This document shows positions 1,850 through 29,700 of a DNA stretch of 64,000 bases, in pieces. The number at the start of each line of letters is the position of its first letter. The first letter of the stretch is position 1. This DNA comes from Pecten maximus. Its lineage: Eukaryota. The position numbers and the translations under genes were made by a program. A model generated the notes under the pieces. That model had not been told where the DNA came from, ran no database searches, and worked only from the letters and a program-made list of their open reading frames with translations. The DNA lies in assembly GCF_902652985.1 (NCBI RefSeq), contig NC_047029.1, forward strand, positions 1,364,001 through 1,428,000, given 5' to 3'.

Positions 1850-3158
1850 TAACGTGGAAAGAAAGCTGGAAAAGAGAATTACTGCAAATAAAACTGTCGT
1901 AGAAATCCGTAAGATCGGGGATTGTTTGCTCGTATTCTCATTGCAGCAAGATGCCGACCAAAAGTAATTGCTCAGAGTCATTGCCAAATACAAATTATCT
2001 GTAATTCCCCGGTTTTTTGTTGTTGTTTTCTTTAAATTTTTGTTTGTTTTTTGTTTGTTTTTTGTTTATTTTTTGTTTGTTTTTTTGTTTTGTTTTTGTT
2101 TTTATTATCATTATTTTTATTCCATTGCTTAGTGAAAAATCTGCTTATGAGTGTCCTAGAAATGTTAGCCGCTGATAGCGCGGTTGAAATCACGGACGAA
2201 ACGTGCACATAAGATAATAGATACTACAACCATTGTAGATGGTATGGTGGAAGTACAAGCGATGGGGAAACCGCTCTTGGTAAACGTTTGTAGTGACTTA
2301 GCAGAACACTTCCTACAAGTCAGTTAAAGAAAGTGCCTGTTAAAATACAATGACGTACATCTTACATTTGACAGGTATGATGTTCCAAAATCACTGAAGG
2401 ATGCCAAAAGACAAAGACGACTTGGAAAAAAGGAGGCAACTGCTTACAATATAACAGACCATACCTATCTTACCAATGTATCTCTGGTGAAGTTTCTGAC
2501 GCATTCATCGACGAAGGATGAATTATCAACATACCTCTCAATAAAAGTCCTCGAGTATGCAACTGAAATGAATCTGCACCTGGTCTGTGCATGGAGAGAC
2601 CAAGCAAGGTCAACTTTTTTCGATGCTGGGTACTTGGCCAGTTCACAAGAGGAAGCAGATATAAAACTCGTCCTACATGCTCACCTCAAAGATGCTCATC
2701 AAACTTGTATATCCACTCACTCGATACAGACGTGTTCATTCACTTTTTTAAGACGGTATCCACGACTACCAAATTCTGCACTGGAACAGGGAATAGGCGA
2801 CCTGAAATAGATTTGGGGCATATATATTGTAGTCTGTCGCCTTTAGAAATAGAGGTCCTACCTAGTGTCCACGCGTTTTCAGGAGCAGATACTACTTGAT
2901 CGTTTTCCGGTGAAGGAAATCTGTCATTTTGGAAGGCATTTCGATCTGCAGACGAATCAGTGAAACGCGTTTTCGCAGACCTCGAAAAGAATGAACTCAC
3001 AGAAGAAATGGAAATAATGATCAAACAGTTCACATGTTATCTATATTTTCCGAAAACAACTCTCATGGATATTGGTTTTCTATGCTGGTGGATGCTTAAG
3101 CAAAAGCAAGCTCAAGCTAAAAAAAACTTCCGCTTACTAGGGCAGCACTGGAACAATC
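1850..3158 (+). pseudogene. 5' part of a decayed PIN/FEN1-like nuclease + CXC-domain gene (probably transposon-derived), interrupted by the Polinton-like element
   Basis: Motifs across frameshifts: DRGLFARIL, IVDGMVEVQ, LTFDRYD, QEEADIKLVLHA, HSLDTDVFI, HAFSGADTT, GNLSFWKAF, WWMLKQKQAQ, KLPLTRAALEQ. The acidic motif order resembles FEN1/XPG-type PIN domains. Confidence 0.7.
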
Positions 3159-3294
3159 GAGAGATGTGATGACACTGTGGGGTTTTTTTCTCTCCCAGAA
3201 TGCTTCATTCAAGATGGCTGCCAATGTTGGCAGCCATCTTGAAATGAGGCATTCTGGGAGAGAAAAAAAACCCACAGATGTCATCAATTCTCTC
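3159..3294. repeat. Terminal ~136-bp imperfect palindrome (hairpin), left end
   Basis: Arms GAGAGATGTGATGACACTGTGGGG(T)7CTCTCCCAGAATGCTTCATTCAAGATGGCTGCCAA / TTGGCAGCCATCTTGAAATGAGGCATTCTGGGAGAG(A)8CCCACAGATGTCATCAATTCTCTC around a TG apex at 3225-3226. Confidence 0.93.
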
Positions 3295-3417
3295 CCCTGT
3301 ATCTTGGTTTTCAAATACAGAAGTGACATACCTTTCTTTAGTTGTATTTTCTTGAGATTTTATCTTTTCATGTTCTTTTGGACATCTTCTTCTTTCAATA
3401 TCTGTTGTTGATGATTT

Positions 3418-3789
3418 ATGGCTAGCCGGGTTGGATTTCATGACGTTATTGACTTTCGGCATGCTAGTATAGTATGTAAATGGCTAGTCGGGTTGGTTTT
3501 CACGACGTTATTGACTTTCGGCATGCTAGTATAGTATGTAAATGGCTAGCCGGGTTGGTTTTCACGACGTTATTGACTTTCGGCATGCTAGTATAGTATG
3601 TAAATGGCTAGCCGGGTTGGTTTTCACGGCGTTATTGGCTTTCGGCATGCTAGTATAGTATGTAGATGGCTAGCCGGGTTGGTTTTCATGGCGTTATTGG
3701 CTTTCGGTATGCTAGTATAGTATGTAAATGGCTAGCCGGATTGGTTTTCATGGCGTTATTGGCTTTCGGCATGCTAGTATAGTATGTAA
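3418..3789 (+). repeat. 62-bp tandem repeat, 6 copies (in left TIR)
   Basis: ATGGCTAG recurs at 3418, 3480, 3542, 3604, 3666, 3728. Confidence 0.93.
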
Positions 3790-3790
3790 A

Positions 3791-4641
3791 TGTCATGATG
3801 TTATTTGTCATTATTTGTCATGTTTTGTCATTATTTGTCATGTTTTGTCATTTTTGTCATAATTTTGTCATTTTTGTCATGTTTTTGTAATGATTTTGTC
3901 ATTTTTTGTCATGTTTTGTCATGATTTTGTCACGATTTTGTCATTATTTGTCATGATTTTGTCATGTTTTGTCATGATTTTGTCATGTTTTGTGATGATT
4001 TTGTCATTTTTGTCATGTTTTTGTCATGATTTGTCATGATTTTGTCATTTTTGTCATTTTTGTCATGATTTGTCATGATTTTGTCATGTTTTTGTCATGA
4101 TTTTGTCATTTTTGTCATGATTTGTCATGATTTATCATGATTTTGTCATGATTTTGTCATGTTTTGTCATTTTTGTCATGATTTTGTCATGTTTTGTCAT
4201 GATTTTGTCATTTTTGTCATGTTTTTGTCATGATTTGTCATGATTTTGTCATTTTTGTCATGTTTTTGTCATGATTTGTCATGATTTTGTCATTTTTGTC
4301 ATTTTTGTCATTATTTGTCATGATTTTGTCATGTTTTTGTCATGATTTTGTCATTTTTGTCATGATTTGTCATGATTTTGTCATATTTTGTCATGATTTT
4401 ATCATGTTTTGTCATTTTGTCATGATTTTGTCATGATTTTGTCATTATTTTGTCATTTGGGATTTTGTCATTATTTTGTCATTTTTTTGTCATTATTTGT
4501 CATGTTTGGTCATTACTTGTCATGTTTTGTCATTATTTGTCATTGTTTTGTCATGATTTTGTCATGATTTTGTCATGATTTTGTCATGTTTTGTCATGAT
4601 TTTGTCATGTTTTTGTCATGATTTTGTCATGTTTTGTCATT
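3791..4641 (+). repeat. Irregular 9-12 bp TTTTGTCATGA-type array (in left TIR)
   Basis: Continuous tgtcatgatttt/tgtcatttt variants; mirrored as ATGACAAAA at ~11423-11920. Confidence 0.93.
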
Positions 4642-4871
4642 ATCCTTCTGAGAGGCCTGGCATTCTTCAATTACAGTTGTCTTGGAAATTCTATGATCTA
4701 TACCAAAAAACATGGTAGTCATTACAATAGAATTCTGATTGAAATACAAGAATTCACATGACCCTGATGTTTTGAAAGGTGAAGTGAAGTCAAATCTATT
4801 TTTGGAATAAAGGAAAAGTTGCCAACAAGTTTATAAAGGGAATCATCTTACGGGAAATATGTATCATTTCT

Positions 4872-5150
4872 ATGATGTTGTCAAATTCAGCATACACCAT
4901 GTTAAAAATCATTCGGTCTCCAATCAAATTTTACCTGAGGTGGAAACTGAGAAAAAGCAAAAGCTGGATATCATTGATAATGTGCATCAAAACAAAAAAT
5001 GATTATTGGGAAGTGATAAATGATGTAGACCGTACATGTTTACGTGGAAAATTAGTTTGTGAAATATTTACCAAAGATTTATGTGAAGTGCAAAGAACCG
5101 ATTCATTTCTTAAACAATTTGAACTGTTAACAGCACATGAAAAGGTATAA
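4872..5150 (+). CDS. Orphan 92-aa ORF, first gene of the element cassette
   Basis: ATG start, same strand as all element genes, TATAAA 40 nt upstream as for other element genes; no recognisable motif. Confidence 0.4.
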   Translation: MMLSNSAYTMLKIIRSPIKFYLRWKLRKSKSWISLIMCIKTKNDYWEVINDVDRTCLRGKLVCEIFTKDLCEVQRTDSFLKQFELLTAHEKV

Positions 5151-5183
5151 AAGGAGTTGCAATGAATATGTGAATAAGGAAAA

Positions 5184-6311
5184 ATGTTGTCAAAAAAGCA
5201 GAAAGATTTTCTGAAGAAGATATGGTATGATCCAAAACATGTGTTGGGATTCACTGGCCCCAAGAGGTTGCATGAGGGTATAAAAAAGAAAGGCAAATTG
5301 AAGATAAGTCTATCACAGGTCACTGCTTGGTTGCAGAATCAAGATCTTTATAGTGTAAGAAGACAAGTTAGACACAAAACACCAAAAGTCAAAACTCCTT
5401 TGGTGAGTGTGGATTACATGTGAGATGCTGATTTAGCAGATGTCTCCAATATCAAAGACTATAATGAAGGCATCACTTTCTTACTAGTTATTGTGGATCA
5501 TTTTTCACGTTATGCTTGGGTACTCCCCCTTAAAAACAAGAAGGATACCACAGTGTTGGAGGCTTTCAAAAAGATATTTGCAGAACGTCAGCCCGTCATC
5601 ATCAGATCAGATCATGGAAAAGAGTTCTTAAACAATGCATTTCAAAAGCATTGCAAAGCCATTGGGGTCACCCACATTGCAAGTCACAGTGCTCATAAAG
5701 CTGCATTTGCTGAATCATTTATAGGGAAGTTGAAAAATATTTTGTATAGATACTTGCATTCCAATCAAACGTTTACCTTTATCGATGTGTTACCTGACAT
5801 CATTAGAAGTTACAACAGTAGAACACACTCTGGTCTGTATGGATTTGCACACAAGGATGTAGACAATGACACACAAAACATCATCTTTTCGAAAAGAGAC
5901 CATGAACCTCCCAAGAAAAAGATGCCACACAAATTCAAAAAAGGAGATCAAGTGAGGCTGAGTTACAAAGTCCGTGAATTCCGTCGGGGGTGGCATCAGA
6001 AATGGACAGATGAACTATTCATAGTCTCTCACAGATATTACAGAGGAAGTGTTCCGGTTTATAAAGTCAAAGATATGATGGGTGAACAGATAGAGGGGGT
6101 TTTCTACGCTCAAGAATTACAAAAGGTCTACAAATCAAAAGAAACGAAGTGGAAAATAGAAGAAGTCTTAAAAGTTAAGAGAGTTAAAGGAAAGAAATTA
6201 GCGTTGATTAGATGGTTAGGATGGCCAAAAAAATTTGATTCCTGGATAGATTATGATGACATTGAAGTGCCCATAAAAACTATAAATAAGCTGAAAAAAA
6301 CACCAAAATAA
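5184..6311 (+). pseudogene. Polinton rve (DDE) integrase with C-terminal chromodomain; nonsense codon at 5421-5423
   Basis: VDYM*DADLAD...LLVIVDHFSRYAW, RSDHGKEF, AFAES, YNSRTHS, FKKGDQVR, WTDELF, FYAQELQKV; chromodomain WKIEEVLK...LIRWLGWPKKFDSWI. ORFs 5184-5423 and 5493-6311 are in the same frame (likely TGG>TGA). Confidence 0.92.
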
Positions 6312-6319
6312 AGAAAACC

Positions 6320-7117
6320 ATGGCTTACGTGTGTCAATTTTGTTCTAAAATGTACACGTTGAAAAACTCTCTGGATCAACATATCAGAAGAAAACATTTC
6401 AAAGATCTACGTGAAATACCGTGTTCATCATCTGGCAAAATTACCTCTCAGGAGGAATTTGATATAGTTAATGTACCGGTAAGCACGTTACCCCCAGTAC
6501 CTAGAGGACATTTCTTGCCCTGGAAACATCCCTTTACCTGTATGATAGCAGGTCCTACAGGAAGTGGAAAAACAACGTTTGTGAAGCGGTTTATAGACAA
6601 CATTCAACAGATGATGACTCCCATACCGGATAAAATCCTGTGGTGTTATGGAGAATATCAAACAATCTATGGTTTCATTGACAAAGTAGAGTTTCATGAA
6701 GGTTTACCTGATCTAATGGAACTAGACACGTCTGTGAATAATTTGATAGTGATAGATGATTTGATGTCTGAAGTTAACTCTGACGTAACGTCATTATTCA
6801 CCAAGAAGAGTCATCATTGCAACATCAGCGTCATGTATATAGTTCAGAATGTATTTTGTCAGAGTAAAAAACATAGAGACATCAGTTTGAATACTCATTA
6901 CATTGTTTTGATGAAAAATCCTAGAGATTCGTCACAGGTCAGGTGTTTGTCTCAGCAGATGTTTCCAGGTAAAACTTTACTGATGGAAGCCTAAAAGGAT
7001 GCTACTCTTCATCCTCATGGATATCTGTTAGTAGATTTGAAACAAAACACTCCTTCAGATCTCAGATTACGTACATGTATATTTCCTGGAGAGTATCAGT
7101 TTGTGTATGGCACCTAA
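6320..7117 (+). pseudogene. FtsK/HerA (A32-like) genome-packaging ATPase with N-terminal C2H2 zinc finger; premature stop at 6992-6994
   Basis: Walker A GPTGSGKT, Walker B LIVIDD, SHHCNISVMYIVQN, RDISLNTHYIVLMKNPRD; the frame continues past TAA as KDATLHPHGYLLVDLKQNTPSDLRLRTCIFPGE to TAA at 7115-7117. Confidence 0.92.
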
Positions 7118-7167
7118 AAACTTATATATATATATGCTTCATGGAAGGTAGATGTTGTTTGACGAAG

Positions 7168-7464
7168 ATGTCTTCATATCTGGAGAAACATTGTAAAGAC
7201 TTGGAGTATTTTTGCCAAGCCGAACCTTCTGTACGCAAAGTCATCCTAGAAAAGGCCAGTAAAAGTTTCATATACTGTTTATGTGAGTGCATACAAAACA
7301 TTCTACAGGGTCGTTTGCCTTTGACACCAAAGCAAAAGAAACGGTTGTCCCGTCACAAACAAAAGTGTAGACAATTATTGAAAACTAAAAAACGTATCAT
7401 TCAACAAGGAGGATTTTTACCTGCCATCACATCCATCTTACTACCCGGTCTATTTAAAAGATGA
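7168..7464 (+). CDS. Small basic Polinton core protein with adenovirus pX-like GGFLPA C-terminus
   Basis: CLCECIQNILQGRLPLTPKQKKRL...IIQQGGFLPAITSILL; resembles the conserved small Polinton/adintovirus ORF; ATG 7168 lies 45 nt after a TATA box. Confidence 0.75.
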   Translation: MSSYLEKHCKDLEYFCQAEPSVRKVILEKASKSFIYCLCECIQNILQGRLPLTPKQKKRLSRHKQKCRQLLKTKKRIIQQGGFLPAITSILLPGLFKR

Positions 7465-8393
7465 AAAAAAAGATACTGGACGTGCAAGGTCCCATCACCA
7501 ACTTCAGACCTAAGCCTCCTGTAGACTCTTTCGTGAAATCCCTTCACCACATTGAGGGGGAAATGGCAAGTACTTTGCAACGTGAAGATCTTCCACTTGA
7601 CGAAAAAATGACTTTGTATGATCAGGATTTAAGAAAATACCTTTCTAGACATCAACAATACAAACAGGATGGTTTAACACCCAAGGTAGTCACTACCATC
7701 GAAAACTTTCCCAAAGAGGACCTCACACGTAAACTTGTTTTGCAGAGTGTACCAAAAACTGCTCAATCTAAGACAGAAATGTTGATGGATAGATTAAAAC
7801 AGGTAGTCCAGTGGAACGACAAAGGAGAATTTGGATATAAAGGTGCCCCGGTGATTTCAGGTTCTAATCTAGTGCATTTAGTGGGCAACGCTACACGTCA
7901 AAGGTCTCTGAAACACGTCAACCCTCAGGGGATGAATACCTTTCTAACAGCTTTAAGGGATCTGAATGTCCCTCCGAGCTGGATAAGTAATAAAGAATAT
8001 TTGGATAAAATGCAAACTGTTGCCTCTACTCCTTTACCAACGATAAGAGAGAATATACCATCTGAAATGTCTTTGGCTAGACCTCCAGCTACTCTTACAT
8101 CTATGATGCCATCTCCAGTCACCCCATTGGCTACATCTCAATCAACTCATACACCATATCATGTTACCCCTTTGGCTACATATCAAGATTTTCATACACC
8201 GATACCATCTGGAGCTACCCCTTTGACCACATCTGAGAACACCCTCCTATCTCCAACACAAATGGATTGGAAGGAATGCAGTGATGAGAGTGGCTACAAC
8301 ACTTTTTCTACACCCACTTCACGATCAACGTTACCTAGAAAACCGGTTTCAGACATGCTAAAGAAATGGAAAAAATTTAAGCCTACAGATTAG
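7461..8393 (+). CDS. Conserved Polinton-associated protein of unknown function with Ser/Thr/Pro-rich tail
   Basis: 310-aa ORF; EMASTLQREDLPLDEKMTLYDQDLRKY, WNDKGE...ISGSNLVHLV, NVPPSWISN resemble an ORF recurrent in animal Polintons. Confidence 0.7.
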   Translation: MKKKILDVQGPITNFRPKPPVDSFVKSLHHIEGEMASTLQREDLPLDEKMTLYDQDLRKYLSRHQQYKQDGLTPKVVTTIENFPKEDLTRKLVLQSVPKTAQSKTEMLMDRLKQVVQWNDKGEFGYKGAPVISGSNLVHLVGNATRQRSLKHVNPQGMNTFLTALRDLNVPPSWISNKEYLDKMQTVASTPLPTIRENIPSEMSLARPPATLTSMMPSPVTPLATSQSTHTPYHVTPLATYQDFHTPIPSGATPLTTSENTLLSPTQMDWKECSDESGYNTFSTPTSRSTLPRKPVSDMLKKWKKFKPTD

Positions 8394-8446
8394 AGCCCGG
8401 AAAAAGTATAAAAGTCATCGAAACACTCCAGTCAAATCATAATAAA

Positions 8447-8698
8447 ATGACTGACAATACCAGTGTAACCTCTAATTGGTTGTTGTTTGGTACCAAACTG
8501 CCAAGAGAAGAAATTGTTTTCTTTTGTCAAGTGTGCATCATCTATATCATCATCTGCTGTAGCATCTATCATCTGAGCATAGGTCATCCACTAGAGTCTC
8601 TGTGGGTTTCTTTGTTGAGCAGTGGTATTGGCTATCTAATACCTAGTCCTACTCTGAAAAAGAAAGATGTTTTACATTTACATAACCCTTCCCAGTAA
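8447..8698 (+). CDS. Small two-TM hydrophobic protein
   Basis: EIVFFCQVCIIYIIICCSIYHL and LWVSLLSSGIGYLIPSP hydrophobic segments; TATAAAA 40 nt upstream. Confidence 0.65.
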   Translation: MTDNTSVTSNWLLFGTKLPREEIVFFCQVCIIYIIICCSIYHLSIGHPLESLWVSLLSSGIGYLIPSPTLKKKDVLHLHNPSQ

Positions 8699-9455
8699 TA
8701 ATTCAATGGAGTACTTTCAAGACAATACATTAACAATTTACAAGACACGTTTGCCTCAACCTCTAGACCCCAAAGGTTCTTGGGAGATGGGTCTAGCTGA
8801 AATTCAATATCCTCACTCTTGGTTCAACGTACGTGAAGGTGAATTGTGGTTGGAGATGATCGTTGGTGGCAGTGACAATGTTGCTAATGTTGAATTTGAT
8901 CCCGGAGCTGCATTAAAACTTTACGTTAAACCAGGTTATTATCCCAATGTGCTCAATATTTTAGAATACATATGGGGGGCCAAAAAAATGGTATCGCATG
9001 GAGATATGTTCAAGATTTCTACCGATAAAATTGATCAGAGGGTAACTTTGACTATATCTACTGGCTTACGTTTAAATCTCAGTCCTATGCTGACAAAATT
9101 GTTAGGATTTAAGTATTCACGGTTTTCTGAAGGAAAACACACTGGCAGGAACATGGCTGACGTTCGTCAAGGTTTCTATTCCATTTATGTCTACTGTCCT
9201 TTGGTTGAACCACAGATGGTGGGTGATTCCAGGGTTCCACTTGTCAGAATAGTTCCAATTGAGGATATGCCAGGACATGTCATCAGTAAAGAATTCCAAC
9301 CAATTCATTATGTACCATTACAACAACGTCAATTTCAAGAAATAGAAATAATGTTGAGAGACGATACAGGCAAACCCATTCCATTTGAGAGAGGAAAAGT
9401 TGTCGTCACCTTACATTTTAAGAGGCATTCTTTAGGTTCAATTTATCAGAACTAA
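8667..9455 (+). CDS. Minor capsid protein (penton-like single jelly-roll, Polinton PX)
   Basis: YITLPSNNSMEYFQDNT, WEMGLAEIQYP, IYVYCPLVEPQMVGDSRVPLVRIV, HYVPL, IEIMLRDDTGKPIPFERGKVVVTLHF. Confidence 0.88.
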   Translation: MFYIYITLPSNNSMEYFQDNTLTIYKTRLPQPLDPKGSWEMGLAEIQYPHSWFNVREGELWLEMIVGGSDNVANVEFDPGAALKLYVKPGYYPNVLNILEYIWGAKKMVSHGDMFKISTDKIDQRVTLTISTGLRLNLSPMLTKLLGFKYSRFSEGKHTGRNMADVRQGFYSIYVYCPLVEPQMVGDSRVPLVRIVPIEDMPGHVISKEFQPIHYVPLQQRQFQEIEIMLRDDTGKPIPFERGKVVVTLHFKRHSLGSIYQN

Positions 9456-9508
9456 AAGGTCTATATAAGAAATTATTATTAGGCTCAAACTGAAGAAAAG
9501 CAATCGAT

Positions 9509-10690
9509 ATGAAAGCTGCTCACCAATGTAATAGAAACCTATTTGATAGGTATTACTTGAATCAAGCTGGGGGAGGTGGTAGTGGAAATGTCTTCAGAGG
9601 AACGAGAATGCAGAGAGGTCATGATATAGGAGGTCTGTTTAGAGGTTTATTCAAAACCATTAAGCCTTTACTTCATTCTGGAATGAAGAGCATCACTCCA
9701 ATTGTGAAGAAAGGAGTGAGACTTGTAGGAAAACAAGCAATTGATTCTGGCATGAAATTGACTAGTGATTTGCTAAAGGGGGAAAACATCAAAGCCAAAG
9801 AATCTCAGTTGACCAGTGGAATGTGGTATAAGGATACAGCTGCGCAAATGGACACGGCTGGAAACGATAATCATGGCTACATCAAGAGGAAATTGTCAAC
9901 AGCAACCAGTAGATCTGTGGAAATGATGGGAAGACTCCATTCTGACCTATTTGCCCAGGAAAGATATCTTGTCAATAATGTGAACATGAAAATAACGTTA
10001 ACCAGAAGTAAAGATGTTTTCTGTTTGATGGGAGAAGACAAAGAATTCAAAGTTGTCATCAAGGACATCTATCTAAACGTGAGAAAAGTTAGACTGAGTC
10101 CATCGGTGAGACTGGCCCATGCAAAAGCCCTGGAAATATCACCTGCCAAATACCCAATCAGAAGAATTGCAATGAAAGTATTTTCTGTTCCAAGAGGAAA
10201 TCACAATTTTGTAAAGGATAATCTTTTTCTAGGACAAATGCCTAAGAGATTGGTCATCGGATGTGTGGACAGTGATGCCTATAGTGGACTCATCACCAAG
10301 AATCCTTTTCATTTTAAAGATTTTGATATTAATTTTGTTGTCCTGAACGTGGATGGCAAACAAGTCCCCACCAAGCCTTTGCAGCCAAATTTCACCCAGA
10401 AACATTACGTAAGAAGCTACATGGGCCTGTTTAACACTACCGGCAAAACGTTTCGTGACGAGGGAAATAACATCTCAAAGGATGAATATGGCACTGGTTT
10501 TACCCTCTTTGGATTTGATCTGACACCCGACCTTTCAGAAGTGGGCACATTTCATCTTATAAAAAAGGGAAACTTGTCTTTGGAAGTGCATTTCGGAACA
10601 GCCCTACCCAATACCATCAACTTTGTGGTGTATGCTGAATTTGACAATATCATAGAAATAGATCGTAACAGGCAAATTCTTTTTGATTAA
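9509..10690 (+). CDS. Chimeric ORF: amphipathic (cupiennin-like) virion protein fused in frame to an N-terminally truncated double jelly-roll major capsid protein (PY/hexon-like)
   Basis: aa 1-~95: YYLNQAGG...QRGHDIGGLFRGLFK...VGKQAIDSG...GENIK. From ~9794: AKESQLTSGMWYKDTA, GRLHSDLFAQERYL, AKYPIRR, GQMPKRLVIG, NPFHF, GFTLFGFDLTPD, VVYAEFDNIIEIDRNR (MCP motifs). Confidence 0.85.
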   Translation: MKAAHQCNRNLFDRYYLNQAGGGGSGNVFRGTRMQRGHDIGGLFRGLFKTIKPLLHSGMKSITPIVKKGVRLVGKQAIDSGMKLTSDLLKGENIKAKESQLTSGMWYKDTAAQMDTAGNDNHGYIKRKLSTATSRSVEMMGRLHSDLFAQERYLVNNVNMKITLTRSKDVFCLMGEDKEFKVVIKDIYLNVRKVRLSPSVRLAHAKALEISPAKYPIRRIAMKVFSVPRGNHNFVKDNLFLGQMPKRLVIGCVDSDAYSGLITKNPFHFKDFDINFVVLNVDGKQVPTKPLQPNFTQKHYVRSYMGLFNTTGKTFRDEGNNISKDEYGTGFTLFGFDLTPDLSEVGTFHLIKKGNLSLEVHFGTALPNTINFVVYAEFDNIIEIDRNRQILFD

Positions 10691-10695
10691 AGTGC

Positions 10696-11150
10696 ATGAT
10701 GAATACTTTAGAAATAGACCTGATCCTACAAGCCGTTTCTCCTCATTTTGCAGGGGTGTATGCTAGAAATACATTACCTACATGTCCTTTAAGTGTTCCT
10801 TGTCTCATGTTTTGTAATACTGACCCAGATAATAAACAAGGACAACATTGGATTGCTATGTATATAGATGAAGAAAGACGTGGAGAAATTATGGTCCTCA
10901 TGGATTGTCTCCCTTTCATTTAGATTTTATCAATTTCTTAAACCGGCAATGTAAAACATGGATTTATAATCCCGTTGCAGTACAGCATTTGAACTATCTA
11001 GTGTGTGGTCAACATTGTATCTATTACTTGGTTCACCGAGAGATGGGAATGACCATGAATGACATCACCGAATATCTTCAATCAGAATGGCATGCCAATA
11101 CTTACATTGTAGATGATTTCGTTCATCATCTTGAACGTAACTTGTTATAA
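10696..11150 (+). pseudogene. Adenain-like (C5) cysteine maturation protease, frameshifted near 10887
   Basis: FAGVYA, CNTDPDNKQGQHWIAMYI in ORF 10696-10923; VQHLNYLVCGQHCIYYL in ORF 10905-11150; the expected catalytic Asp position reads YGPHG. Confidence 0.88.
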
Positions 11151-11279
11151 TAGTAATGAGTATACATTGTTATTAATTGCAGGTTTTGTGTAGTGACTGT
11201 ATGTATTGCAATACATAACTTATAAAAATATTGATTGTTTAATTAAGAAATCATTGTTTGTATATACGTTTGTGAATAT

Positions 11280-11285
11280 AATAAA
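11280..11285 (+). terminator. Putative polyadenylation signal at the end of the element cassette
   Basis: AATAAA 130 nt after the protease stop, just before the right TIR. Confidence 0.4.
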
Positions 11286-11319
11286 AGAAAAAAAAACTAA
11301 GTATGAATTATGTTATTTT

Positions 11320-12417
11320 TTTCAATCAGAATTCTATTGTAATGACTTCCATGTTTTTTGGTATACATCATAGAATTTCCAAGACAACTGTAATTGAAGA
11401 ATGTCAGGCCTCTCAGAAGGATAATGACAAAAATGACAAAAATGACAAAAAATGACAAATAATGACAAAACATGACAAAATCATGACAAAAATGACAAAA
11501 CATGACAAATAATGACAAAACCATGACAAAAATGACAAAATCAGGACAAAACATGACAAAACATGACAAAATCATGACAAAACATGACAAAATCATGACA
11601 AAACAATGACAAATAATGACAAATAATGACAAAATCATGACAAAAATGACAAAATAATGACAAAATCATGACAAATCATGACAAAAATGACAAAATAATG
11701 ACAAAATCATGACAAATCATGACAAAAATGACAAAAATGACAAAATCATGACAAAACATGACAAAATCATGACAAAAACATGACAAAATATGACAAAATC
11801 GTGACAAAATCATGACAAATCATGACAAAACATGACAAAATTGACAAAATTATGACAAAATGACAAAACATGACAAATAATGACAAAACATGACAAATAA
11901 TGACAAATAACGTCATGACATTTACATACTATACTAGCATGCCGAAAGCCAATAACGCCATGAAAACCAATCCGGCTAGCCATTTACATACTATACTAGC
12001 ATACCGAAAGCCAATAACGTCGTGAAAACCAACCCGGCTAGCCATCTACATACTATACTAGCATGCCGAAAACCAATAACGTCGTGAAAACCAACCCGGC
12101 TAGCCATTTACATACTATACTAGCATGCCGAAAGCCAATAACGTCATGAATTCCAACCCGGCTAGCCATAAATCATCAACAACAGATATTGAAAGAAGAA
12201 GATGTCCAAAAGAACATGAAAAGATAAAATCTCAAGAAAATACAACTAAAGAAAGGTATGTCACTTCTGTATTTGAAAACCAAGATACAGGGGAGAGAAT
12301 TGATGACATCTGTGGGTTTTTTTCTCTCCCAGAATGCCTCATTTCAAGATGGCTGCCAACATCTTGAATGAGGCATTCTGGGAGAGAAAAAAAAAACACA
12401 GTGTCATCACATCTCTC
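11320..12417 (-). repeat. Right terminal inverted repeat (shorter microsatellite, 4x62-bp repeat, terminal hairpin 12293-12417)
   Basis: Reverse complement of the left TIR; four 62-bp units at ~11922-12169; hairpin apex has a 10-bp deletion. Confidence 0.93.
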
Positions 12418-12423
12418 ACAATC

Positions 12424-12700
12424 AATCTTGCGAACTGAGCTTCAGGCTATAATTTGGTTCAATGATGACGTCGCATGCCCTATGCTTCCATCTCCTACTG
12501 TTTGGATGGAGAGGGTAAAATGATAGTTATGACCTCCCTTCATCCTGCACCAACTGCAATGTTTGAATTTATTTCATGCAAGTGCAAAACAACTCGATGC
12601 TCATCAAATAAGTGTAAGTGCAAATCGAACAACTTGTTTTGTACATAACTTGACGAGTGTGTAGCAGATAATGACACATGCGAAAACACACCATTAGGCC
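12424..12700 (+). pseudogene. 3' part of the interrupted PIN-like/CXC gene
   Basis: Continues ILRTELQAIIWFNDDVACPMLPSP, then PAPTAMFEFISCKCKTTRCSSNKCKCKSNNLFCT*LDEC...CEN (tesmin/CXC-like Cys cluster). Confidence 0.8.
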
Positions 12701-15089: not shown

Positions 15090-18000
15090 ACACTGCCATC
15101 TCCTTTATACCGCCATTCCCTTGACCGACACTGCCATCCCCTTGACCGACACTGCCATCTCCTTGACCGACACTGCCATCTCCTTGACAGACACAGCCAT
15201 CCCCTTGACAGACACTGCCATCCCATTGACAGACACTCCCATCTCCTTGACCGACACTATCATCCCCTTGACAGACACTGTCATCCCCTTGACAGACACT
15301 GTCATTCCCTTGACAGACACCGCCATCTCCTTGACAGTCACTGCCATCCCCTTGACAGACACTGCCATCCCATTGACACTCCCATCTCCTTGACAGACAC
15401 CGCCATCCCCTTGACCGACACTGTCATCCCCTTGACAGACACTGCCATTTCCTTGACAGATACTGTCATCCCCTTGACAGACACCGCCATCCCCTTGACA
15501 GACACTACCATCACCTTGACACACACTCCCATCTCCTTGACCGACACTGTCATCCCCTTGACAGACACTGCCATCCCCTTGACAGACACTGCCATCCCCT
15601 TGACAGACACTGCCATCTCCTTGACAGACACTGCCATCTCCTTGACAGACACCGCCATCCCCTTGACAGACACTGCCATCCCCTTGACAGACACTGCCAT
15701 CTCCTTGACAGATACTGTCATCCACTTGACAGACACCGCCATACCCTTGACAGACACTGCCATCACCTTGACACACACTCCCATCTCCTTGACCGACACT
15801 ATCATCCCCTTGACAGACACTGTCATCCCCTTGACAGACACTGCCATCCCCTTGACAGACACTGCCATCTCCTTGACAGACACTGCCATCTCCTTGACAG
15901 ACACTGTCATCCCCTTGACAGACACTGCAATCTCCTTGACAGACACTCCCATCCCCTTGACAGACACTGCCATCTCCTTGACCGACACTGTCATCCCCTT
16001 GACAGACACCGCCATACCCTTGACAGACACTGCCATCACCTTGACACACACTCCCATCTCCTTGACCGACACTGTCATCCCCTTGACAGACACTGCCATT
16101 CCCTTGACCGACACTGTCATCTCCTTGACAGACACTGTCATCCCCTTGACAGACACTGCCATATCCTTGACAGACACTTCCATCCCCTTGACAGACACTG
16201 CCATCTCCTTGACCGACACTGCCATCTCCTTGACAGTCACTGCCATCCCCTTGACAGACACTCCCATCTCCTTGACAGACACTTCCATCCCCTTCACAGA
16301 CACTGCCATCTCCTTGACAGACACTGCCATCTCCTTGACAGACACTGCCATCTCCTTGACAGACACCGCCATCCCCTTGACAGACACTGTCATCCCCTTG
16401 ACAGACACTGCCATCCCCTTGACAGACACTGCCATCCCCTTGACAGACACTGCCATCTCCTTGACAGACACTGCCATCTCCTTGACAGACACTGTCATCC
16501 CCTTGACAGACACTGCAATCTCCTTGACAGACACTCCCATCCCCTTGACAGACACTGCCATCTCCTTGACCGACACTGTCATCCCCTTGACAGACACTGC
16601 CATCTCCTTGACAGATACTGTCATCACCTTGACAGACACCGCCATACCCTTGACAGACACTGCCATCACCTTGACACACTCCCATCTCCTTGACCGACAC
16701 TGTCATCCCCTTGACAGACACTGCCATTCCCTTGACCGACACTGTCATCTCCTTGACAGACACTGTCATCCTCTTGACAGACACTGTCATCTCCTTGACA
16801 GACACTGCCATCTCCTTGACAGACACTCCCATCTCCTTGACAGACACTGCCATCCCCTTGACAGACACTGCCATCCCCTTGACAGACACTGCCATCACCT
16901 TGACACTGCCATCCCCTTGACAGACACTGCCATCCCCTTGACAGACACTGCCATCTCCTTGACAGACACTGTCATCCCCTTGACAGACACTGCCATCCCC
17001 TTGACAGACACTATCATAACCTTGACACTGACATCCCCTTGACAGACACTGCCATCCCCTTGACAGACACTGCCATCTCCTTGACAGACACTGGTATCTC
17101 CCTGACAGACACTGCCATCCCCTTGACAGATACTCCCATCCCCTTGACAGACACTGTCATCTCCTTGACAGACACTGCCATCTCCTTGACAGACACTGCC
17201 ATCTCCTTGACAGACACTGTCATCCTCTTGACAGACACTGTCATCCCCTTGACCGACACTGCCATCCCCTTGACAGACACTGTCATCTCTTTGACAGACA
17301 CTGTCATCTCCTTGACAGACACTGTCATCCCCTTGACAGACACTGCCATCTCCTTGACAGACACTGTCATCCTCTTGACAGACACTGCCATCTCCTTGAC
17401 AGACACTGTCATCCCCTTGACAGACACTGTCATCCCCTTGACAGACACTGCCATCTCCTTGACAGACACTGCCATCCCCTTGACAGACACTATCATCTCT
17501 TTGACAGACACTGCCATCTCCTTGACAGACACTGCCATCCCCTTGACAGACACTGCCATCCCCTTGACAGACACTCCCATCCCCTTGACAGACACTGCCA
17601 TCTCCTTGACAGACACTGCCATCCCTTTGACAGACACTCCCATCCCCTTGACAGACACTGCCATCTCCTTGACAGACACTGTCATCACCTTGACAGACAC
17701 TGTCATCACCTTGACAGACACCGCCATCTCCTTGACAGACACTGCCATCTCCTTGACAGGCACTGCCATCTCCTTGACCGACACTGTCATCCTCTTGACA
17801 GACACTGTCATCCCCTTGACCGACACTGCCATCCCCTTGACAGACAATGCCATCTCTTTGACAGACACTGTCATCTCCTTGACAGACACTGTCATCCCCT
17901 TGACAGACACTGCCATCTCCTTGACAGACACTGTCATCCTCTTGACAGACACTTCCATCTCCTTGACAGACACTGTCATCCCCTTGACAGACAGTGCCAT

Positions 18001-20135
18001 CCCCTTGACAGACACTGCCATCTCTTTGACAGACACTGCCATCCCCTTGACAGATACTGTCATCCCCTTGACCGACACTGTCATCCCCTCGACAGACACT
18101 GCCATCTCCTTGACAGACACTCCCATCTCCTTGACAGACACTGCCATCTCCTTGACAGACACTGCCATCCTCTTGACAGACACTGCCATCCCCTTGACAG
18201 AAACTGTCATCCTCTTGACAGACACTACCATCTCTTTGACAGACACTGCCATCTCCTTGACAGAAACTGTCATCTCCTTGACAGATACTGTCATCTCCTT
18301 GACAGACACTGCCATCTCTTTGACAGACACTGCCATCTCCTTGACAGACACTGTCATCTCCTTGACAGATACTGTCATCTCCTTGACAGACACTGCCATC
18401 TCTTTGACAGACACTGCCATCTCCTTGACAAACACTGCCATCTCCTTGACAGATACTGTCATCTCCTTGACAGACACTGCCATCTCTTTGACAGACACTG
18501 CCATCTCCTTGACCGACACTGTCATCTCCTTGACAGACACTGTCATCCCCTTGACAGACACTGCCATCTCCTTGACAAACACTGCCATCCCCTTGACAGA
18601 TACTGTCATCTCCTTGACAGACACTGTCATCTCCTTGACAGACACTGTCATCCCCTTGACAGACACTGCCATCTCCTTGACAAACACTGCCATCTCCTTG
18701 ACAGATACTGTCATCTCCTTGACAGACACTGCCATCTCTTTGACAGACACTGCCATCTCCTTGACAGACACTGCCATCTCCTTGACAAACACTGCCATCT
18801 CCTTGACAGACACTGCCATCCCCTTGACAGACACTATCATCTCCTTGACAGACACTGCCATCCCCTTGACAGACACTACCATCTCCTTGACAAACACTGC
18901 CATCTCCTTGACCGACACTGTCATCTCCTTGACAGACACTGTCATCCCCTTGACAGACACTGCCATCTCCTTGACAAACACTGCCATCTCCTTGACAGAC
19001 ACTATCATCTCCTTGACAGACACTGCCATCTCTTTGACAGACACTGTCATCCCCTTGACAGACACTGCCATCCCCTTGACAGACACTGCCATCCCCTTGA
19101 CAGACACTCCCATCTCCTTGACAGACACTCCCATCTCCTTGACAAACACTGCCATCTCCTTGACCGACACTGTCATCTCCTTGACAGACACTACCATCTC
19201 CTTGACAGACACTACCATCTCCTTGACAGATACTGTCATCTCCTTGACACTGACATCCCCTTGACAGACACTGCCATCCCCTTGACACTGACATCTCCTT
19301 GACAGACACTGCCATCCCCTTGACACTGACATCCCCTTGACAGACACTGCCATCCCCTTGACAGACACTGCCATCTCCTTGACAGACACTGTCATCCCCT
19401 TGACAGACACTGCCATCTCCTTGACAAACACTGCCATCTCCTTGACAGATACTGTCATCTCCTTGACAGACACTGCCATCCTCTTGACAGACACTGCCAT
19501 CCCCTTGACAGACACTGTCATCTCCTTGACAGACACTGTCATCCTCTTGACAAACACTGCCATCTCCTTGACAGATACTGTCATCTCCTTGACAGACACT
19601 GCCATCCTCTTGACAGACACTGCCATCTCCTTGACAGACACTGTCATCCCCTTGACAGACACTGCCATCTCCTTGACAAACACTGCCATCCCCTTGACAG
19701 ACACTCCCATCCCCTTGACAGACACTGCCATCCCCTCGACAGACACTGTCATCCCCTTGACCGACACTGTCATCTCCTTGACAGACACTGTCATCCCCTT
19801 GACAGACACTGCCATCTCCTTGACAGACACTGCCATCTCCTTGACAAACACTGCCATCCCCTTGACAGACACTCCCATCCCCTTGACAGACACTGCCATC
19901 CCCTCGACAGACACTGTCATCCCCTTGACCGACACTGTCATCTCCTTGACAGACACTGTCATCCCCTTGACAGACACTGTCATCTCCTTGACAGACACTG
20001 TCATCCCCTTGACCGACACTACCATCTCCTTGACAGACACTGCCATCTCCTTGACAGACACTGCCATCCCCTTGACAGACACTGCCAACTCCTTGACACT
20101 GTCATGCCCTCGACAGACACTGCCATCTCCTTGAC
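15090..20135. repeat. 21-bp minisatellite (CCTTGACAGACACTG[C/T]CATC[C/T])n, ~240 copies
   Basis: Direct reading; source of the TDTAISL / QGDGSVC / MAVSVKE pseudo-ORFs. Confidence 0.97.
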
Positions 20136-23100
20136 ACCAGAACAGGGTCTCCGAGTATTATATCGGTACTAAAAACGAAAGTGAAACCGACTTCACAAAA
20201 TATAACAATATTGACTGAAAACTCGTTCTTGTTATTTGTTATTCCCCAACAGTAAAATATAAACCATTGAACATATTTGTTGCTTCCTCTTGTTGATTTG
20301 ACCTTTTCTACCAAATAAAGTTTTCTGGAAAAATCAGGTGCATCAAAGTTTCTGGTTTTCGATATTGCATATCAGTTTTTTATACACTCGGTACTCGGCA
20401 TATCAAAAAACCCTTCGAATTATTATAGTTTATGAGGGATGTCTCTTGTCTAACAATACCAGCTAAAACATAATGAGAATTTAGCCATCTGATAATGAAC
20501 ACACCAAAGAGAGACAATCCCCTTCGTAACAAACGAATAATGAATATTTTAGACTTGTTCAAATGGTAATTATCGCAATCTCTTGTTTGGGGTTGGTTAA
20601 AATTACTGTTTCAGATAAAACAATATTATATGTTTGTATTTCCCCTATCATTGTAGTAAGCCAGATTGTATCACTCAGTTATCTACATTACATAGTTTAC
20701 TGTACTGTCCCCATTATCATGTGATATTGCACATGCGCAAACAGTTGGGTCCAGATGAAATACGGGAATCCCAGATTAAACGCGACTTCCACTTTTGATC
20801 TAGACGCAGTTATCAATTGATTTCCTTTAACAAACACATTTTAAAAACAAGTGATTTGGATTTTAAAGAAAGCAGACGTCAACTAAGGTGTGGTAAGTGT
20901 ATATATATATATATATATAGATTTCCTCTGTGAAACATACAGGTGTATAACACATGTACCTGAATGATTAGTACGTGATATTAACAGAAAGATACCATCC
21001 AGCAGCTCAGTTCAAGATACAGTTTAATGGTATATGTATATATATATATATAAATGTGTGTGTACAAAACCAGTTCTTGGTATCAGACAATTAATAATCC
21101 AACAGAATTCATAGAGCCCTCCTTGAAGTTATCCCTCGTCTTCGGGACACTCAGTTAGTAAGGATACCTATTAAAGACGAAAGGAGAGGAAATGAAAGAA
21201 TCAGGATCAGAGTAGAAAAGACAAGAAAGTGAAAAAGAGAAAAAAAAGTACATTCAAATGAGGTCTCAGTGTCAAAATGTTCCAATTCGAATACAGGTCT
21301 TGACAAACATTGCAATTTCCTTGATGCCATCTCCTTGACATACATTGCCAACTCCTTGACACTGCTATCCCCTTGGTAGACACTGCCAATTCCTTGACAC
21401 TGTCATCTCAATGACAGACACTGTCATCTCCTTAACACCAGAACAGGGTCTCCGAGTATTATACCGGCACTAAAAACGAAAGTGAAACCGACATCACAAA
21501 ATGTAGCAATTATGACTGATAACACGTTCTTGTTATTTATTCCCCAACAGTAAAATATTAACCATAAAAACCAATGTATTGTGTCCTCCTGCTGATTGAC
21601 CTTTTCTGAAAAATCAAGTTTTCTAGATAAATCAGGTGCATCATAGTTTCTGGTCTTCGATATTGCATATCAGTTGTTTTTTTTATACACTCGGTACTCG
21701 GCATATCAAAAAGCCCTTCGAATTATTATAGTTTATGAGGGATGTCTCTTGTCTAACAATACCAGCTAAAACATAATGAGAATTTAGCCATCTGATAATG
21801 AACACACCAAAGAGAGACAATCCCCTTCGTAACAAATGAATAATGAATATTTTAGACTTGTTCAAATGGTAATTATCGCAATCTCTTGTTTGGGGTTGGT
21901 TAAAATTACTGTTTCAGATAAAACAATATTATATGTTTGTATTTCCCCTATCATTGCAGTAAGCCAGATTGTATCACTCAGTTAGTTACATTACATAGTT
22001 TACTGTACTGTCCCCATTATCATGTGATATTGCACATGCGCAAACAGTTGGGTCCAGGTGAAATACGGGAATCCCAGATTAAACGCGACTTCCACTTTTG
22101 ATCTAGACGCAGTTATCAATTGATTTCCTTTAACAAACACATTTTAAAAACAAGTCATTTGGATTTTAAAGAAAGCAGACGTCAACTAAGGTGTGGTAAG
22201 TGTATATATATATATATAGATTTCCTCTGTGAAACATACAGGTGTATAACACATGTACCTGAATGATTAGTACGTGATATTAACAGAAAGATACCATCCA
22301 GCAGCTCAGTTCAAGATACAGTTTAATGGTATATGTATATATATATATATAAATGTGTGTGTACAAAACCAGTTCTTGGTATCAGACAATTAATAATCCA
22401 ACAGAATTCATAGAGCCCTCCTTGAAGTTATCCCTCGTCTTCGGGACACTCAGTTAGTAAGGATACCTATTAAAGACGAAAGGAGAGGAAATGAAAGAAT
22501 CAGGATCAGAGTAGAAAAGACAAGAAAGTGAAAAAGAGAAAAAAAAGTACATTCAAATGAGGTCTCAGGGTCAAAATGTTCCAATTCGAATACAGGTCTT
22601 GACAAACATTGCAATTTCCTTGATGCCATCTCCTTGACATACATTGCCAACTCCTTGACACTGCTATCCCCTTGGTAGACACTGCCAATTCCTTGACACT
22701 GTCATCTCAATGACAGACACTGTCATCTCCTTAACACCAGAACAGGGTCTCCGAGTATTATACCGGCACTAAAAACGAAAGTGAAACCGACATCACAAAA
22801 TGTAGCAATTATGACTGATAACACGTTCTTGTTATTTATTCCCCAACAGTAAAATATTAACCATAAAAACCAATGTATTGTGTCCTCCTGCTGATTGACC
22901 TTTTCTGAAAAATCAAGTTTTCTAGATAAATCAGGTGCATCATAGTTTCTGGTCTTCGATATTGCATATCAGTTGTTTTTTTTATACACTCGGTACTCGG
23001 CATATCAAAAAGCCCTTCGAATTATTATAGTTTATGAGGGATGTCTCTTGTCTAACAATACCAGCTAAAACATAATGAGAATTTAGCCATCTGATAATGA

Positions 23101-26735: not shown

Positions 26736-29700
26736 ATGGCGGCGGAACAAACTTTGGTGTATTTTAACACACAAACAACTGGACTTAGTAAGTACAACAT
26801 TCCTTGTGTTTATACATTAGACCAATGTACGCGCACTTCTGATAGAGAAATTAACAATCCAAGGTTTCCAAAAACGTAGGTTGATGAAAACTACGAGAAA
26901 GTTCTATCTAAGACATCATCATCTCAATCGGAAAGTTCTATTTATTTTTAATATATGAAGTCAGACGTGTTCAATGTTTTTTTGTTTTGGCTTGAGATAC
27001 CGTTGTTAAGAAAATGACGCGATTTTCCACAAGGATAAAATGAGTTGCATCACTTTGAAGCTTCCGTTATGACTGACTCCTAATTTCTTAATCATTATGA
27101 CGGAATGACCGCGGCTAACAACATGTCCAAGTCATATATCGCCATTATGAGTTGTGTTATCAATCGCCATTGTTGGTTATGTCATAGATCGCCATTGTTG
27201 GTTATGTCATAGATCGTCATTGTTGGTCGTGTCATAGATCGCCATTGTTGGTCGTGTCATAGATCGTCATTGTTGGTCGTGTCATAGATCGCCATTGTTG
27301 GTTATGTCATAGATCGCCTTTGTTAGTCGTGTCATAGATCGTCGTTATTGGTTTTGTCATAGATCGTCATTGTTAGTCGTGTCATAGATCGTCATTGTTA
27401 GTCATGTCATATATCGCATTTGTTAGTCGTGTCATAGATCGTCGTTATTGGTTTTGTCATAGATCGTCATTGTTAGTCGTGTCATATATCGCCTTTGTTA
27501 GTCGTGTCATAGATCGTCGTTATTGGTTTTGTCATATATCGCCATTGTTGGTCGTGTCATATATCGCCATTGATGGTCGTGTCACAAAACGTCATTGTTG
27601 GTCATGTCGTAGATCGTCATTGTTAGTCGTGTTATATATCGCCATTGTTAGTCGTGTCATAAATCGTCATTGTTGGTTATGTCATAGATCGCCATTGGTA
27701 GTCGTGTAATATATCGCCATTGATGGTCGTGTCACAGAACGTCATTGTTGGTCGTGTCATATATCGTCATTGTAGGTCTTGTCATAGATCGTCATTGTTG
27801 GTCGTGTCACCAATCGTCATTGTTGGTCGTGTCATCAATCGTCATTGTTGGTCGTGTCATAGATCGTCATTGTTGGTCGTGTCATCATTCGTCATTGTTG
27901 GTCGTGTCATAGATCTTCATTGTTGGTCGTGTCATCAATCGTCATTGTTGGTCGTGTCATAGATCGTCATTGTTGGTCGTGTCACAGATAGTCATTGTTG
28001 TTCGTGTCATAGATCGTCATTGTTGGTCGTGTCATAGATCGCCATTGTTGGTAGTGTCATAGATCGTCATTGTTAGTCGTGTTTTAGATCGTCATTCTAA
28101 GTCGTGTCATATATCGCCATTGTTAGTCGTGTCATAGATCCTCATTGTTGGTTGTGTCATAGATTGGCATTATTGGTCGTGTCATAGATCGCCATTGTTG
28201 GTCGTGTCATAGATCTTCATTGTTAGTCGTGTCATAGATCGCCATTGTTGGTCGTGTCATAGATCTTCATTGTTATTCGTGTCATAGATCATCAATGTTA
28301 GTCAAGTCATAGATCGCCATCGTTGGTCGTGTCATAGATCGTCATTGTTGGTCGTGTCATAGATCGCCATTGTTAGTCGTGTCATAGATCGCCATTGTTG
28401 GTCATGTCATAGATCGCCATTTTTGGTCGTGTCAGAGATCGCCATTGTTGGTCGTGTCATAGATCTTCATTGTTAGTCGTGTCATAGATCGCCATTGTTG
28501 GTCATAGATCGCCATTGCTAGTCATGTCAAAGATCGTCATTGTTGGTCGTGTCATAGATCGTCATTGTTGGTCGTGTCATAGATCGTCATTGTAAGTCGT
28601 GTCATATATCGCCATTATTGGTCATGTCATAGATCGTCATTGTTGGTCGTATCATAGATGGCCATTGTTGGTCATAGATCGCCACTGTTAGTCATGTCAT
28701 AGATCGTCATTGTTGGCCGTGTCACCAATCGTCATTGTTGGTCGAGTCATCAATCGTCATTGTTGGTCGTGTCATAGATCGCCATTGTTGGTAGTGTCAT
28801 AGATCGTCATTGTTAGTCGTGTTATAGATCGTCATTGTAAGTCGTGTCATATATCGCCATTGTTAGTCGTGTCATAGATCGTCATTGTTGGTAGTGTCAT
28901 AGATCGGCATTATTGGTCGTGTCATAGATCTCCATTATTGGTCGTGTCATAGATCGCCATTGTTGGTCGTGTCATAGATCGGCATTATTGGTCGTGTCAT
29001 AGATCGCCATTGTTGGTCGTGTTATAGATCTTCATTGTTAGTCGTGTTATAGATCGTCATTGTAAGTCGTGTCATATATCGCCATTGTTAGTCGAGTCAT
29101 AGATCTTCATTGTTGGTCGTGTCATAGATCGCCATTGTTGGTCGTGTCATAGATCGGCATTATTGGTCGTGTCATAGATCTTCATTGTTGGTCGTGTCAT
29201 AGATCTTCAATGTTAGTCGAGTCATAGATCTTCATTGTTAGTCGAGTCATAGATCTTCATTGTTGGTCGTGTCATAGATCTTCAATGTTAGTCGAGTCAT
29301 AGATCGCCATTGTTGGTCGTGTCATAGATCGTCATTGTTGGTCGTGTCATAGATCTTCATTGTTGGTCGTGTCATAGATCGTCATTGTTGGTCGTGTCAT
29401 AGATCGCCATTGTTGGTCGTGTCATCAATCGTCATTGTTGGTCGTGTCATAGATCGCCATTGTTAGTCGTGTCATATATCGCCATTGTTGGTCATGTCAT
29501 AGATCGCCATTGTTGGTCGTATGACAGATCGCCATTGTTGGTCGTGTCATAGATCTTCATTGTTAGTCGTGTCATAGATCGCCATTGTTGGTCATAGATC
29601 GCCATTGCTAGTCATGTCATAGATCGTCATTGTTGGTCGTGTCATAGATCGTCATTGTAAGTCGTGTCATATATCGCCATTGTTGGTCATGTCATAGATC

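Follow-up and report, generated by a model that had tools for sequence, protein, structure and literature searches.

To our knowledge, the replication of Polintons has so far been inferred from gene content only. Terminal hairpins are well known from parvoviruses, in which those of the AAV ITR and of the left end of minute virus of mice are ~120-145 nt long, pair their 3′ end to the last base and combine inner small repeats with a fixed stem asymmetry. Poxvirus and other covalently closed hairpin telomeres are incompletely paired fold-backs with extra bases, whose closed ends occur as two complementary isomers. Polintons or Mavericks (Eupolintoviridae, adintoviruses), among them a mollusc pPolB2 group with VSR, have duplications of a 6-bp target site (TSDs), long TIRs and a dinucleotide-repeat end, and encode an rve integrase, a packaging ATPase, a protease, capsid homologues and a pPolB with vOTU- and VSR-like domains, as described in the accessible part of PMC10748475, where no job is assigned to the nuclease inserts of pPolB2. 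In the protist Halocafeteria seosinensis, endogenous virophages and PLV with an rve integrase contain palindromes inside the TIR that adjoin the TSD, and hairpin priming was proposed for them in a July 2026 preprint (10.64898/2026.07.28.741278, accessible sections). Bidnaviruses and Vesanto virus encode a pPolB and have several segments with common terminal sequences, and the bidnavirus repeats form no parvovirus-type hairpins according to the available text of PMC4061559 (see also PMC8502044 and PMC8363768, in extracts).

The hairpin family described here shares with Polintons all of the features listed above, as far as the accessible part of PMC10748475 describes them. It is unlike them in its terminal hairpin of 127-136 nt, in the distribution of pPolB and the integrase/capsid genes over separate elements, each with its TIRs, and in the GA instead of AG phase of its ends. 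It is similar to the Halocafeteria elements in having a TIR palindrome beside the TSD on rve-integrase elements; these differ, in the accessible sections of the preprint, by their protist host, a 52-nt palindrome (in the figured subtype) and mostly non-pPolB replicases, whereas the hairpin family is an animal Polinton with pPolB on a sister element. Bidnaviruses and Vesanto virus differ by their ssDNA, a parvovirus-type capsid and the lack of an integrase (PMC4061559, PMC8502044 and PMC8363768, same extracts), and the integrase, A32 ATPase and adenovirus-type protease of the hairpin element place it outside the Bidnaviridae.

We analysed a window of 64,000 nucleotides from Pecten maximus, in which the hairpin-ended Polinton spans positions 3159-12417 (9,259 bp), with the ends GAGAG...CTCTC, between two copies of the 6-bp TSD ACAATC (3153-3158 and 12418-12423). 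Repeats of 62 bp and a microsatellite are found within its TIRs, which are ~1.6 and ~1.1 kb long. Inward of the hairpin, the left TIR (3295-4744, forward strand) consists of unique sequence (3295-3417), six 62-bp repeats (3418-3792), a 10-11-bp microsatellite (3804-4640) and inner unique sequence up to 4744, and the inner part of the right TIR lies at 11320-12292 on the reverse strand. Between the TIRs, all genes are on the forward strand. The first gene of this integrase/capsid segment is a 92-aa ORF (4872-5150), followed by a retroviral-like integrase with a chromodomain (5184-6311; Pfam rve, E 1.5e-12) that is interrupted in the window copy by a stop at 5421-5423, and by an A32/IVa2-like packaging ATPase (6320-6994; Pfam Pox_A32 above the cut-off) of 224 aa in the window copy versus 265 aa in young copies. 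Three conserved Polinton ORFs of 129, 310 and 83 aa (7075-8698) have no Pfam match, and neither has the ORF at 8667-9455, which by position and likeness we take to be the probable minor capsid protein. At 9509-10690, a deletion of ~600 bp near 9793 has fused a 142-aa ORF with the 3′ portion of the gene for the probable major capsid protein. The intact 432-aa homologue of the latter has 1,516 relatives, of which the named ones are F54H12.2-like, one of them with PF21738, and the nearest of these are from Pecten maximus (99%), Argopecten irradians (76%) and Mizuhopecten yessoensis (69%); the capsid ORFs themselves have no direct match in Pfam. The region of an adenovirus-type maturation protease (10696-11190) is open for 75 aa only in the window copy, and an intact copy exceeds the Pfam Peptidase_C5 cut-off. 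Several genes between the TIRs are therefore seen in a broken state in the window copy. An ORF and Pfam scan found no polymerase gene between the TIRs, and no HUH/Rep nickase, Rep/NS1-type gene or protelomerase was present among the ORFs scanned. With its 6-bp TSD, long TIRs, short tandem-repeat end motif, rve, Pox_A32 and Peptidase_C5, the element has the features of a Polinton.

The right flank at 12420-12650 reads as a Cys-rich peptide without a Pfam match, which we assume to resemble the end of a CXC-type transposase; the hairpin-ended element may sit within an older transposon. Elsewhere in the window, long tandem arrays occupy 15090-20136, 27131-33353, 40804-45271, 51200-52605 and 61301-62674, with periods of 21, 25, 25, 12 and 43, respectively, and the long ORFs at 15105-20067 fall inside the array of 21-bp period. 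We also observed a 63-bp-period repeat of tRNA-derived appearance (37396-37585) and a 274-aa ORF with a weak zf-RVT match (59008-59832; E 0.014), which is probably a retroelement remnant.

The left terminal hairpin (3159-3294) is a 136-nt imperfect palindrome, paired from its first base through its last. Positions 3140-3320 fold at -71.7 kcal/mol (z -16.4), with none of 200 shuffles equally stable, and the isolated 136 nt fold at -67.1 kcal/mol around a 4-nt loop (3224-3227; centre 3225/3226). This confirms the original prediction, made from the window's letters, that the terminal 136 bp fold on themselves to the last base with an apex at 3225-3226. A palindrome of ~136 bp had been described at each terminus, which is true of the left one; the right hairpin (12293-12417) is shorter, 125 nt, because 10 nt are deleted at its apex. 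The left hairpin, of what we call type 1, combines a GAGAGA end with a 2x2 mismatch at bases 7-8, an inner arm with 1-nt bulges, a small inverted repeat within the outer arm (3198-3210) and two head-to-head AAGATGGC cores flanking the apex (3211-3218 and 3233-3240), which, together with their AA(G/A)ATGG form, we presume to be YY1-like and label as such. In length, paired 3′ end, small repeats and stem asymmetry it is like the hairpins of parvoviruses, from which the element differs by the absence of a Rep/NS1-type gene in the tested ORFs, the absence of whole-hairpin flip/flop and its integration with a 6-bp TSD. The fold-back with extra bases is shared with poxvirus telomeres, whereas the open end and the single orientation are not. 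Since the tip GAGAGA//TCTCTC is the Maverick end motif (AG)3//(CT)3, as given in the accessible part of PMC8097293, shifted by one base, there is little departure from Polinton ends; the predicted letters were right, and their divergence from the usual Polinton terminus is small.

Copies of the end occur throughout the 918-Mb genome G000, in which we obtained 215 candidates, scoring the best 40, and 86 exact sites of the inner-boundary pattern. The first 30 end loci taken all folded into the hairpin. When the capsid gene was traced through the genome, a second end type of 127-129 nt was found. In total, we recovered 113 ends, 96 of them complete (74 of type 1 and 22 of type 2, of which 16 are distinct) and 17 damaged. 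The two types are 66% alike and have very different mid-arms; common to both are the GAGAGA tip, the mismatch near base 7-8, an inner arm that bulges by 1 nt near base 16-17, small inverted repeats in the arms, head-to-head AA(G/A)ATGG apex cores and a similar length. Each arm of the type-2 ends has a small inverted repeat, at a position similar to that of 3198-3210 in type 1. The AAGATGGC core is present in the outer arm of 69 and the inner arm of 63 of the 74 type-1 ends, and the related AAAATGG core in 21 outer and 18 inner arms of the 22 type-2 ends. Of the arm asymmetries that had been ascribed to the element, the mismatch and bulge near the base are indeed family-wide, while ATTC/ATTTC is polymorphic (25/74 type-1 ends; 23/66 aligned ends).

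Compensatory changes between the arms were also found. In an alignment of 66 of the 74 type-1 ends, 94.2% of the cells pair, and changes had occurred on both sides in 19 of 62 pairs, compared to 9.0 +/- 1.6 after shuffling (0/500) and 6-12 with the partners slid. Moreover, the top four values of corrected mutual information among 650 cross-arm pairs of variable columns are all hairpin pairs. The arms of the hairpin thus change together; because the copies are related, p-values overstate independence and these figures show joint change rather than selection, and covariation can arise by arm-to-arm copying without it. Some pairs stay mismatched in many copies, for instance column 40 in 19 of 66 ends. 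Among the damaged ends chosen from maps, 9 of 15 break at bases 58-73, and this clustering around the apex suggests formation of the structure in DNA.

Within an element, the two ends are 95.5% alike in the median (22 elements), compared to 86% (462 pairs) for ends taken from different elements. Type-2 hairpins of 127-129 nt bound the young copies G000:C3566:3606-15214, C263:12670-23714 and C10:20222285-20233751, which have the same gene set as the window element (hereafter A). The capsid genes of type-2 copies are 99.7% alike, and 98.1% when compared to those of type-1 copies, although the hairpins are only 66% alike, which points to an exchange of ends. Furthermore, five outer arms (three of type 1 and two of type 2, the latter being a single site represented twice) begin like the type-2 inner arm, and this looks like conversion. 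At G000:C3:19609158-19615126, three right ends stand in tandem ~2.8 kb apart, each with the same flank; here an element end lies within a tandem repeat of the host. We considered, but dropped, a mobile mini-element made up of the palindrome alone, as apex sites (86-88) are about as numerous as inner-boundary sites (86), two patterns compared by number and not site by site. Scans of viral contigs with a pPolB frame, a capsid frame and a capsid alignment found no relatives, and a metagenome scan gave 80 loci, with these ends present in none of the 33 loci of at least 4 kb examined.

As controls, we used 19 regions around other pPolB loci in G000. Nine have TSD-bounded ends, of AGTAGT, AGCAGC or TGATGA type, and none of these nine has a terminal hairpin: over the first 150 nt, their folding energies are -11 to -23 kcal/mol (z +0.4 to -4.4), and a tenth, uncertain end is similar, compared to -52 to -68 kcal/mol (z -12 to -16) for five ends of the hairpin family. 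Because the ends of the other pPolB families fold so weakly, the hairpin is specific to its own family among the Polinton families in G000. Three control families are full-length and combine a polymerase of the same (VSR) class with capsid genes, and an association of VSR-class polymerases with hairpin ends as a general rule is thereby ruled out. Six TSD-bounded Polinton-like elements of 7.6-9.8 kb were observed in G000 (C8:32026373-32035716, C10:8788624-8798539, C10:24282904-24292743, C13:14118978-14128120, C12:21782248-21791549 and C11:35184240-35191841). They carry pPolB and ATPase, five of them also integrase, and several have long open polymerase frames; capsid and protease queries gave no match, and these elements may be capsid-less lineages or may have divergent capsids.

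Three other elements (G000:C3:13850963-13858865, C8:37979196-37987356 and C18:20923844-20935853; hereafter B) have the same hairpin ends and 6-bp TSDs and carry pPolB, with one whole and one partial PC4-like region among them; integrase or capsid genes were not found in any of the three. The hairpin had been proposed to stand in for the missing pPolB, and its absence from the nine ends of other PolB-containing families would agree with that. However, sister elements with pPolB are bounded by these same ends, and replacement of the polymerase by the hairpin is therefore not supported. More likely, the hairpin is an end signal common to the two cooperating pieces into which a virus has probably been split.

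The pPolB of B was studied through structures predicted from two natural frames. A vOTU fold (best Z 7.9, rmsd 4.1, 124 aligned) lies ahead of the exonuclease domain; judged by their titles, 24 of its 25 top structure matches are OTU-type deubiquitinases, and its Cys is invariant in 59/59 rows. The last ~85 residues of this frame run out of the polymerase frame. A VSR-like fold has 107 residues aligned to 1cw0 (Z 9.3, rmsd 4.2), a label that rests on this structure comparison, as a sequence search of solved structures gave E 0.48 and Foldseek E 0.02-0.06. A small alpha/beta domain, predicted with confidence, precedes vOTU at the terminal-protein position of Polintons and has weak matches to viral pPolBs (E 0.001-0.07) and none to solved structures. 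Within it, a serine is invariant in 59/59 rows (L094:4448-5356, alignment A4) and might, speculatively, be a candidate priming residue. The B pPolB agrees with the known TP-vOTU layout (PMC11161782) and with the mollusc pPolB2 group with VSR (PMC10748475), both as described in the accessible parts of these papers. All pPolB copies seen are broken and are 94% alike, compared to 99.7% for the youngest A copies, and appear from this divergence to be older than these. A pPolB partner with type-2 ends for the youngest A copies was not found among the 91 protein and 26 DNA pPolB candidates, all of which were scored.

Examining 66 regions, we delimited 27 TSD-bounded elements, of which ten have A genes only, three pPolB without A genes, one a PC4 piece only and twelve no genes; the remaining one is a chimera of PC4 and a capsid end without pPolB. 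None of the 27 combines pPolB with integrase/capsid genes and, because pPolB resides on separate elements with the same ends, the window copy is not an autonomous Polinton. Of 20 B loci, not one has any of the 53 listed A matches within 1.59 Mb (best 40 of 60 capsid and best 40 of 73 integrase candidates scored); 17 share a contig with a listed A match and three do not. Behind pPolB, the DNA continues into the TIR at 13 sites and into A sequence at none of 23 loci. From the TIR on, an independent 7.7-kb contig (L274) is laid out like A, with the same junction between TIR and first gene and no pPolB. In the 28 A copies, pN/pS is 0.26 for shared variants versus 0.73 for singletons (Fisher p 4e-12) and, for the capsid gene alone, 0.13 versus 0.55, the difference being not significant in two of nine A genes; in six copies of the B pPolB it is 0.14 versus 0.35. 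These ratios show purifying selection on shared variants in both modules. In a tree of the type-1 ends (73 of 74), those of A and B intermingle, with seven changes for B, at least two of them forced by well-supported branches, the bootstrap being rough. Complementary gene sets on elements with shared ends, as in a segmented DNA virus, are present in this one assembly, in which no full-length form with pPolB and A genes was found and one chimera was seen. The Polinton is probably split in two, with integrase and virion genes on A and the protein-primed polymerase and a PC4-like gene on B.

How two such segments would propagate can be outlined in a model to which we give about an even chance. 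The pPolB of B would copy both segments in trans, beginning at their GA-repeat tips with a protein as primer, and the integrase of A would insert both; since B has TSDs but no integrase, we infer that the latter is supplied in trans. The hairpin would be the shared end signal on displaced strands. When these single strands fold end-to-end, the two ends of one element would stay alike, and when they fold back on each hairpin, one arm would be copied from the other, while the outer arm would be recognizable as the true end by the fixed mismatch and the 1-nt bulge near the base. In short, the palindrome is a hairpin that terminates elements throughout the family, with arms that change in step, and it likely serves as a shared signal for replication and integration.

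The orientation of the hairpin bears on this model. The near-terminal form of the inner arm is fixed in all 74 type-1 and all 22 type-2 complete ends, and an extra A is found in the inner arm of 25 of 74 type-1 ends and in the outer arm of none. The loop alone occurs in both orientations (21 versus 4 for the commonest pair in type 1; 11 versus 11 in type 2). An opened telomere or AAV-type terminal resolution predicts whole-hairpin flip/flop isomers. We found none in the 96 complete ends, a count that leaves out the 17 damaged ones, and the earlier suggestion of an opened hairpin telomere or rolling-hairpin origin fails on this point. The pattern is consistent with copying from end to end and from arm to arm, or with a resolution by which one orientation is retained. 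A centre flip between G000:C10:3120367 and 3132110 was not counted, as it is partial and its inverted flanks suggest rearrangement or misassembly. No head-to-head junction was present among the 86 inner-boundary sites listed. At G000:C6:13116526-13116780, a B copy ends in a fold-back junction (an inverted piece of the inner TIR, then half a hairpin), which resembles a snap-back defective genome.

A resolution that keeps one orientation is also what a self-priming origin would involve, a reading that we hold to be possible but somewhat unlikely. A folded-back 3′ end would prime the host polymerase or pPolB, and a nick, possibly made by the VSR-like domain of the B polymerase at the conserved mismatch, would resolve one side only. 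This can be combined with the two-segment layout, and the left end of minute virus of mice offers a parallel, as its one-orientation resolution depends on stem asymmetry. The pairing of the last base, the retention of the structure between end types so different in sequence, the VSR-like fold itself and the young intact type-2 A copies without a matching pPolB in the assembly are in line with self-priming. Whole-hairpin flips and head-to-head junctions are missing from the 96 complete ends and the 86 listed inner-boundary sites, respectively, however, and both vOTU and the GA-repeat tip, which are tied to protein priming, have been kept; moreover, the three full-length, TSD-bounded VSR-class families in G000 do without hairpin ends. 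The proposal of hairpin priming in the Halocafeteria preprint, where palindromes adjoining the TSD mostly accompany replicases other than pPolB, counts in its favour and gives the original prediction a precedent; section 7 of that preprint, as accessible, reports no covariation or flip test.

The chimera (G000:C17:11616648-11626396) raises another possibility. It is TSD-bounded, has type-2 ends and joins a B-like left arm, the PC4 region with 73% DNA identity to type-1 B, to an A-type right end, where the protease and the 3′ end of the capsid gene come from A. No other trace of a type-2 B segment was seen, and the chimera could be a deletion product of a full-length element. As it has parts of both modules, one may ask whether A and B are independent deletion derivatives of a full-length Polinton that is missing from the assembly or exogenous, the hairpin being that element's end signal. 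Elements without genes show that deletion derivatives are common, pPolB stands beside capsid genes in relatives (in convergent order in 5 of 33 metagenome loci of at least 4 kb, and in the full-length G000 families), and shared synonymous variants could stem from recombination with a master element. We nevertheless consider this unlikely: no B locus was near a listed A match, the TIR junctions are fixed on both modules, the capsid gene appears to be under selection among polymerase-less copies, A and B ends diversify together, and the convergent order of the relatives should not yield the chimera by one deletion.

Distinctly doubtful, and bolder than the two-segment model given above, is a bipartite hairpin-ended animal polintovirus with separate integrase/capsid and polymerase molecules, a self-priming hairpin, one-sided resolution by the polymerase's own VSR-like nuclease and end types swapped between lineages; such a virus, if real, would connect Polintons with segmented bidnaviruses and with hairpin replication in the style of parvoviruses. 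That the palindrome arose once by snap-back duplication of an end and is kept, functionless, by neutral arm-to-arm conversion alone is very improbable, since, although any quasi-palindrome should undergo inversion of its loop and deletion at its apex and pairs such as column 40 are often mismatched, this fragile structure persists in all intact ends, conversion should erase the near-terminal mismatches too, and the two types have differing mid-arms yet share length, near-terminal mismatch and bulge, inner repeats and apex cores. These readings are not mutually exclusive in all combinations.

We found no report of a bipartite Polinton in the openly accessible literature, nor of a terminal hairpin in an animal Polinton, including the accessible parts of PMC11131425, PMC11071296, PMC12567637 and 10.64898/2026.10.13.758929. 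The hairpin family gives a defined 135-nt end with natural paired variants, and hairpin-free controls in the same genome, for studies of how the ends are primed, nicked and recognized by the integrase. More striking is that the element is probably divided into two parts. If true, it would mean that a virus of the double-jelly-roll type has a divided genome. Surveys that demand all core genes in one window, such as the five proteins within 20 kb described in the accessible part of PMC10748475, would miss such two-segment elements, and polymerase-less Mavericks would have a possible explanation besides decay.
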